Source: Escherichia coli
Lineage (GTDB): Bacteria; Pseudomonadota; Gammaproteobacteria; Enterobacterales; Enterobacteriaceae
Strand: one strand, 5' to 3'
NCBI RefSeq assembly: GCF_030013205.1
Contig: NZ_CP122648.1
Length of the DNA: 64,000 nt
Numbering within the stretch: position 1 is the first letter of the stretch; each line of letters opens with the position of its first letter. The position numbers were made by a program, and so were the translations under genes. The notes beneath the pieces were generated by a model that had not been told where the DNA came from, did no database searches, and worked only from the letters and a program-made list of their open reading frames with translations. Below, piece by piece: positions 9,949 to 10,257 of this stretch.

Positions 9949-10024
9949 TGGAGCGGGAAACGAGACTCGAACTCGCGACCCCGACCTTGGCAAGGTCGTG
10001 CTCTACCAACTGAGCTATTCCCGC
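9949..10024 (-). tRNA. tRNA-Gly (GCC)
   Basis: Reverse complement reads GCGGGAATAGCTCAGTTGGTAGAGCACGACCTTGCCAAGGTCGGGGTCGCGAGTTCGAGTCTCGTTTCCCGCTCCA, a 76-nt cloverleaf ending in CCA. Confidence 0.95.
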
Positions 10025-10181
10025 TTAATCTTCGTCTTTCGAACCGCTACTGCCTTGGCTGCCTTCACTCACCTTAGTCACTTACTTTTGTAAGCTCCCA
10101 AGGATTCGTTCAGTTGCCGCCTTGTCGCAATTCGAAATACTGCGATTGGGTGGTCTGTGCTTTGCAGCACTTTTCAAATTT

Positions 10182-10257
10182 TGGAGCGGGAAACGAGACT
10201 CGAACTCGCGACCCCGACCTTGGCAAGGTCGTGCTCTACCAACTGAGCTATTCCCGC
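10182..10257 (-). tRNA. tRNA-Gly (GCC), second identical copy
   Basis: Exact 76-nt repeat of the tRNA at 9949-10024, separated by a 157-bp spacer. Confidence 0.95.

Follow-up and report, generated by a model that had tools for sequence, protein, structure and literature searches.

The 64-kb window examined here, by which we mean the whole stretch of Escherichia coli DNA that was analysed, contains three tRNA genes according to ARAGORN, namely two tRNA-Gly(GCC) genes and one tRNA-Phe gene (39121-39196). Both tRNA-Gly genes lie on the minus strand, the first of them, equivalent to glyV, at 10182-10257 and the second at 9949-10024, with a spacer of 157 nt (10025-10181) between them. Their 76-nt sequences are identical to each other and to K-12 glyV, glyX and glyY, and each gene passed as a cloverleaf with anticodon GCC and scored 69.1 bits against the Rfam tRNA model RF00005 (E = 7.9e-15, gathering score 29). 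A blastn-short search with the tRNA as query detected no third tRNA-Gly copy or remnant across the whole window, the sole other match being 20 nt in the D-arm of the tRNA-Phe gene, at 39127. A sequence-only reading of this DNA had described two identical 76-nt tRNA-Gly(GCC) genes, a 157-bp spacer and no third copy nearby, and this structure stands in every respect. The description was nevertheless incomplete, since it mentioned neither the identity of the spacer, which harbors an ERIC element, nor the location of the array on the minus strand directly upstream of datA.

Synteny and flanking identity place the array at the E. coli orn-glyVXY-datA-queG locus. The upstream flank encodes orn (oligoribonuclease; 10468-11013, minus strand), and queG (epoxyqueuosine reductase; 8540-9679, plus strand) is convergent with the tRNA operon, both genes being identified from their translations and from the annotation of matching RefSeq loci. 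Together with ~99% flank identity to K-12, this orn-queG synteny corresponds to the position of the glyVXY operon. The surrounding 2.5 kb is 95–99% identical to E. coli chromosomes annotated with queG, two tRNA-Gly genes, orn, and rsgA, and a 25-kb comparison to a set of complete genomes from which the window's own strain is absent yielded top matches at 99.0–99.5% identity, the best of which (99.5%) was the one-copy strain TUM1226. The K-12 array, glyV-glyX-glyY (b4163-b4165), shares this locus, with orn upstream and datA, yjeV, and queG downstream, as well as a tRNA sequence, promoter region, first 36-nt spacer, and terminator/datA region that are identical or nearly identical to those of the window, between flanks ~99% identical. 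In contrast to K-12, the window includes two genes instead of three, plus a 121-nt ERIC between them, for an array length of 309 bp in the window vs. 299 bp in K-12. MG1655 does carry glyV, glyX, and glyY, as the earlier reading had stated, with spacers of 36 and 35 nt, and not the two copies with the same spacer which that reading had named as the observation that would speak against it. Compared to a glyVXY operon understood as three tandem genes with spacers of ~35 nt, an array of two genes separated by 157 nt represents a structural variant.

The elements controlling this operon appear unaltered relative to K-12. The predicted glyV(XY) promoter (GCGCCTCC; 10308-10344, minus strand) was read from the sequence and is identical to that of K-12, with a −35 element TTGCAG (10337-10342), a 16-nt spacer, a −10 element TATAAT (10315-10320), and a G+C-rich discriminator. 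By analogy with the K-12 literature it would be the functional promoter of the array, and the 5' end of the glyVXY precursor of Kime et al. 2014 (PMC3985628) maps just downstream of it, to 10289-10307. A generic consensus scan for promoters and terminators called neither at the array, in the case of the promoter because its −35 element matches the consensus at only 3 of 6 positions, and both elements were placed based on K-12 identity and literature. Past the second tRNA lies a predicted glyVXY terminator/attenuator (9893-9930, minus strand, with a hairpin and T-run at 9893-9923), which is identical to K-12 and for which the role is taken from PMC10950094. This element overlaps datA DnaA box 1, a near-consensus ATATCCACA at 9922-9930. 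The datA core (9693-9863, minus strand) was delineated by pattern matches to the consensus in PMC10950094 and is ~99% identical to K-12. It includes DnaA boxes TTATCCACA at 9855-9863 and TTATTCACA at 9693-9701, as well as a pattern match to the IHF-binding site, TAATCTATTGATA, at 9786-9798, i.e., the DnaA-box cluster and single IHF site expected of datA are found downstream of the tRNA-Gly operon, at 9693-9930. Kasho et al. 2024 (PMC10950094) showed that when transcription from the glyVXY promoter reads through into datA, less IHF is bound there ahead of replication initiation.

Elsewhere in the window, the tRNA-Phe gene (39121-39196, plus strand) is immediately followed by an ORF for a P4-type integrase (39394-40656) and then by a fragment of an IS66 transposase (41730-42251). 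Next come two genes forming a CBASS-like pair, which encode a SMODS/AGS_C cyclase (42386-43714) and a SLATT_6 2TM effector (43722-44297), a QatABCD defence operon that is complete and lies on the minus strand (44849-49408), and a gene for a DUF3987 protein (57713-59287). GC content falls to 0.38–0.46 across 42–52 kb of the window, and the region from 39121 to 59287 resembles a pheU genomic island with anti-phage systems as its cargo.

Alignment to K-12 resolves the 157-nt spacer into two parts, which we read as the native 36-nt glyV-glyX spacer (10146-10181, minus strand) followed by a 121-nt ERIC/IRU-type, MITE-like imperfect palindrome (10025-10145, minus strand). In this alignment, the two sequences are identical across the flanks, the first tRNA, and the initial 36 nt of spacer, after which come 121 nt that K-12 lacks and then the last tRNA. 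The inserted element ends in ...GAAGATTAA, which abuts tRNA position +1, directly 5' of the next tRNA, and its position between two genes of one operon implies that it would be co-transcribed with the tRNAs. The native spacer includes a small predicted hairpin, GUGCU-GCAA-AGCAC (10157-10170, minus strand), for which compensatory changes are observed across genera at all three consensus stem pairs (GUGCU/AGCAC, GUAUC/GAUAC, GUGUC/GACAC), and this suggests a conserved processing or trailer structure. With Rfam models run at permissive thresholds over 9600-10500, the two tRNAs were the only hits and the spacer matched no family. The minimum free energy fold of the whole precursor pairs the two identical tRNAs with each other and is thus uninformative, although the ERIC and spacer hairpins still form.

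Several lines of evidence identify the 121-nt insert as a member of the ERIC/IRU/RU-1 family, a group of repeats reportedly described by Sharples and Lloyd in 1990 and by Hulton and colleagues in 1991. The insert folds into a long imperfect hairpin (MFE of −51 kcal/mol, z = −4.9), and its center, GAATCCTTGGGAGCTTACAAAAGTAAGTGACTAAGGTGAGTG, matches the ERIC-PCR primers ERIC1R and ERIC2 (sequences as quoted in PMC6066780) at 16/22 and 19/22 positions, with differences that include paired substitutions keeping the stem (CCCCAG/CTGGGG to CCTTGG/CTAAGG). It also aligns over its full length with the ERIC copies located in puuR-puuC and queA-acpH, the latter matching the same primers at 20/22 and 21/22 positions, and the median E. 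coli genome has related sequence at 9 places (E ≤ 1e-3), with sampled paralogues 70–81% identical. Taken together, the hairpin, primer core, full-length paralogue alignment, and dispersed relatives support the family assignment. ERIC/IRU/RU-1 elements are 127-bp imperfect palindromes with terminal inverted repeats (PMC2229807, PMC3184786), the latter with 5'-TA-3' ends and target-site duplication (PMC2229807, Table 1). The window copy shares with this family a ~120–127 bp palindrome, a central inverted repeat, an intergenic location, multiple copies, and conservation across genera. It differs in lacking the canonical termini TATACAC...GTGTATA found in the puuR-puuC and queA-acpH copies, in showing no clear TA target duplication in E. 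coli, where the flanks read CCCAA/...GATTAA/G, and in being located inside a tRNA operon and abutting a tRNA 5' end. The corresponding flanks in several other genera read CCTAATCAC...GATTAA, which is suggestive of, and could be, an old TA duplication. A full-text search returned no description of an ERIC in a glyV or tRNA-Gly context, the papers by Wilson & Sharp (2006) and by De Gregorio et al. (2005) lying outside the scope of this search.

The window allele is rare, while the insertion it carries is common. In a survey of 5426 complete E. coli genomes, the 121-nt element was detected at ≥95% identity in about 1605 records, and a 429-nt query spanning the array recovered the glyV-spacer-ERIC-tRNA arrangement in 1606 genomes (~30%). 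All eight ERIC-bearing loci fetched as examples of forms other than that of the window were organized as glyV-157 nt-glyX-35 nt-glyY, and in a sample spread across the matches all 17 ERIC-positive rows following a full-length match stopped matching right after the second tRNA, from which we take these 17 to represent the same three-tRNA form. In a multiple alignment, this common ERIC allele differs from K-12 by a clean insertion of 121 bp immediately 5' of glyX, and the window lacks exactly 111 bp of the common allele (glyV-36 nt-ERIC-glyX-35 nt-glyY), i.e., one tRNA and the 35-nt spacer. Given this 111-bp gap, which is clean, the second tRNA gene of the window takes the place that glyX and glyY together occupy in the three-copy ERIC allele.

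A query covering the junction from the ERIC end through the tRNA to the start of datA was matched in 27 of the 5426 genomes. Two of these are other forms, strains A39 and IH5, leaving about 25 genomes (0.5%) with the window form. The A39 array is glyV-ERIC-glyX-ERIC-glyY. In IH5 (NZ_CP168949.1, locus 2581-2730), no spacer separates the second tRNA-Gly from a third copy that is truncated at its 5' end (...CCCGCTCC/CGGGAATAGC...), and this fusion represents either an aberrant deletion or a consensus/assembly error in that record. Regardless of ERIC state, a single-copy query indicated that no more than two copies are present here in 122 of the 5426 genomes (2.2%). The sampled rows with at most two copies include two-copy arrays without ERIC, e.g., Xuzhou21 and ST648, and at least three strains have one copy (TUM2826, TUM11356, TUM1226). 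The 122 genomes with one or two copies contradict a previous statement by which three or four copies of the gene are found at the array "in all E. coli" (PMC4539685). The weakest record of the array search, OHT76-1 (NZ_CP135244.1), matches only at glyW (pgsA-glyW-cysT-leuZ), which suggests that the whole orn-glyVXY-queG array region is missing or rearranged in that genome.

We compared 3.74 kb of flanking sequence, array excluded, between 11 two-copy ERIC sequences (the window and 10 genomes), six three-copy ERIC loci, A39, IH5, and K-12. Four pairs, each composed of one two-copy and one three-copy strain, displayed no flank difference at all over this distance: XDL/2D, EC45/EC2341, CAVP814/EC29, and EH2252/00_3305. 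The backgrounds of these four pairs differ from one another at 24–91 flank sites. In all four, the two-copy strain has the same spacer/ERIC haplotype as its three-copy partner, with three distinct haplotypes among the pairs, and flanking protein accessions agree with this haplotype picture. These identical-flank, identical-haplotype pairs on different backgrounds argue that one unit was lost in place at least four separate times. Overall, two-copy ERIC arrays were found on four spacer/ERIC haplotypes, and the ERIC haplotype of the window is identical to that of the three-copy strains Ch1 and 181.1. K-12, without ERIC, and EC2341, with ERIC, differ at only 4 of 3741 flank sites, which indicates that ERIC presence or absence is uncoupled from the local haplotype. 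The ERIC difference between these two strains could reflect a precise loss, a short-tract conversion from the neighbouring spacer, or recombination.

The same site is occupied well beyond E. coli. We scanned species-representative genomes for an ERIC core followed after 40–65 nt by a tRNA-Gly 5' end, requiring 11 exact core bases, and obtained 24 loci from Citrobacter, Enterobacter, Klebsiella, Kluyvera, Leclercia, Yokenella, Trabulsiella, Pluralibacter, Superficieibacter, Silvania, Mixta, E. whittamii, and other Escherichia species. Within the stored flanks, orn and/or queG adjoin the array in all 24 loci, and both do so in 15. The orientation of the element is constant, and so is the point ahead of the tRNA at which it ends, in ...GATTAA or ...GATTAT. 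Which spacer it occupies differs between arrays: it is found in spacer 1 (the E. coli arrangement), in spacer 2, in both (C. youngae ATCC 29220), or, in the four-gene array of Mixta theicola, in all three. ERIC copies within one array share private substitutions, as seen in A39, C. youngae ATCC 29220, and Mixta theicola among the multi-ERIC arrays, which is the pattern that unit duplication by unequal exchange would give, and these multi-ERIC arrays look like the expansion counterpart of the contraction in the window. Internally deleted ERIC remnants, in spacers of 77–82 nt, were identified at the same site in C. amalonaticus and two other genomes. In all of them, i.e., two spacers of C. amalonaticus (798-879 and 956-1036) and the first spacer of each of the other two genomes, only the two ERIC ends are kept and the central ~75 nt are lost.

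Across genera, these elements are 80–94% identical to the window copy, compared to 47–61% identity at the fourfold-degenerate sites of the orn and queG genes from those genomes, i.e., at synonymous positions close to saturation. Both the identities and the pairing figures below refer to copies selected for 11 exact core bases and to a repeat family that is highly conserved in general. The orthologous gly ERICs are also closer to each other than to the paralogous ERICs sampled in E. coli genomes without a gly copy. In an alignment of 23 orthologous copies, the predicted hairpin is paired in 97.7% of its cells, and nine pairs changed on both sides. No shuffled alignment reached the observed percentage of paired cells, number of both-side changes, or covariation score, and sliding the partners by 1–3 columns led to far lower values for all three measures. 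Several near-fixed pairs are G-U on the tRNA-sense strand and correspond to A-C mismatches on the other strand, which points to a constraint acting on the transcript rather than on the DNA.

Based on these comparisons, we consider it very likely that the window carries a rare structural allele of glyVXY, derived from the common ERIC-bearing three-gene array by loss of one 111-bp unit through tandem misalignment. The allele reads, in order, predicted promoter, tRNA-Gly, 36-nt spacer, 121-nt ERIC, tRNA-Gly, predicted terminator, and datA. The ERIC on the 5' side of the second tRNA is old, given the occupation of the same site in many enterobacterial genera, and the unit lost from glyV-ERIC-glyX-glyY would be a 76-nt tRNA with its 35-nt spacer, by replication slippage, sister-strand misalignment, or unequal crossing-over. 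As the tRNA copies are identical, the crossover is unmappable, and slippage and RecA-dependent exchange leave indistinguishable products. The sequence-only reading had guessed at recombination between tandem tRNA repeats, and copy loss by misalignment between identical tandem tRNA genes is indeed how the alignments read, with the difference from the common allele amounting to 111 bp and recurring on at least four backgrounds. Short tandem repeats are known to expand and delete by slipped misalignment or unequal sister-chromatid exchange in E. coli. The glyVXY array resembles these systems in that whole units are gained and lost recurrently between identical copies, and the population contains one-, two-, and three-copy arrays along with a double-ERIC array, i.e., products of reciprocal type. 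It differs from them in that the natural polymorphisms described here are deduced from genomes alone. Flexibility in tRNA gene copy number has been documented more broadly (PMC10954465, PMC4539685).

The alternatives to such a contraction are all improbable. Tandem identical 76-nt repeats are a classic site for assembly collapse, and the odd spacer-less tRNA fusion recorded for IH5 resembles an assembly or consensus error, so that a true glyV-ERIC-glyX-glyY array with one 111-bp unit collapsed in the window assembly has to be considered. We regard such an artefact as very unlikely, because some 25 independent complete genomes belonging to several lineages share the two-copy structure, with clean junctions identical to those of the window, and because the 111-bp repeat unit is shorter than ordinary reads. 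A two-copy ERIC array could conversely be the older form, with three-copy ERIC arrays arising by repeated tandem duplication, inasmuch as unequal exchange also yields gains, as in the expanded A39 array and the four copies of Mixta theicola, and the E. whittamii locus shows two copies, in a stored sequence that stops at the second tRNA. This reversed order appears slightly less plausible still: three-copy ERIC arrays outnumber two-copy ones by ~1580 to 25, most fully visible arrays of other genera include three genes, and the 35-nt second spacer could not be regenerated from a glyV-ERIC-glyY array, which has no such spacer. Frequency and outgroups thus support a polarity from three to two copies, as far as comparative sequence data can.

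Seen against K-12 alone, the alignment looks as if 111 bp had been swapped for 121 bp, and a single event in which an ERIC transposed into a K-12-like array, displacing glyX and its spacer, would result in the near-equal lengths of 309 and 299 bp. This replacement is the least credible of the three and is ruled out by the abundant glyV-ERIC-glyX-glyY alleles: ERIC with three tRNAs is the common form, with a clean 121-bp insertion and glyX intact, and the ERIC haplotype of the window is the same as in the three-copy strains Ch1 and 181.1.

Transcription from the K-12-type promoter would presumably still yield a single precursor, from which RNase E and RNase P would release two tRNAs. The ERIC hairpin would be removed together with the spacer RNA, and gene dosage within the array would drop from three to two. 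Both enzymes have been shown to act on the K-12 glyVXY precursor in vitro (PMC3985628). A full glyVXY deletion of MG1655 has been constructed and grown (PMC9981150). Since this deletion strain grew and natural one-copy strains exist, a large cost of copy loss is unlikely, and the effect of losing one copy is probably near neutral.

Whether the ERIC itself contributes to the operon is a separate question. It is conceivable, but in our view rather unlikely, that the element has been a selected RNA element of the tRNA-Gly array, held in a fixed position since before the enterobacterial genera diverged. In this reading, the ERIC, which stops a base or two short of a tRNA 5' end, may guide precursor processing, be released as a stable structured RNA, or tune the glyV read-through that displaces IHF from datA. 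The constant site and orientation across genera, the identity in excess of that at fourfold-degenerate sites, the compensated stem pairs with their G-U bias on the transcribed strand, and the closeness of the orthologues to one another all speak in its favor. Regulatory RNAs originating from tRNA-operon spacers include 3'ETS-leuZ and the internal spacers of metZWV. The gly ERIC would similarly be a structured, conserved RNA co-transcribed with tRNAs and excised in processing, although this likeness is one of analogy. Against a selected role, ~70% of E. coli genomes, including K-12, do without this ERIC and have no known defect, internally deleted remnants persist in some species, and ERICs are conserved in general. 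The latter is in line with previous observations that ERIC sequences are unusually conserved.

Taken together, these results point towards an ordinary and recurrent array contraction, occurring on an allele that carries an old ERIC absent from K-12, and the low novelty attributed to the locus by the sequence-only reading was a fair assessment. The statement that E. coli has glyVXY is consequently a statement about K-12 rather than about the species, with 2.2% of genomes carrying two or fewer copies and ~30% carrying the ERIC, and tRNA gene counts and codon-adaptation models derived from K-12 would be slightly off for such strains. Meanwhile, the conserved, fixed-position ERIC in a tRNA-Gly operon near datA provides a modest lead. 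Work on datA read-through used the ERIC-less K-12 allele (PMC10950094), whereas ~30% of isolates put a strong 121-nt hairpin in the transcript. If the ERIC does tune read-through, it would feed into the timing of replication initiation, and the element, if shown to be functional, would be a rare instance of a fixed-position ERIC with a testable function.
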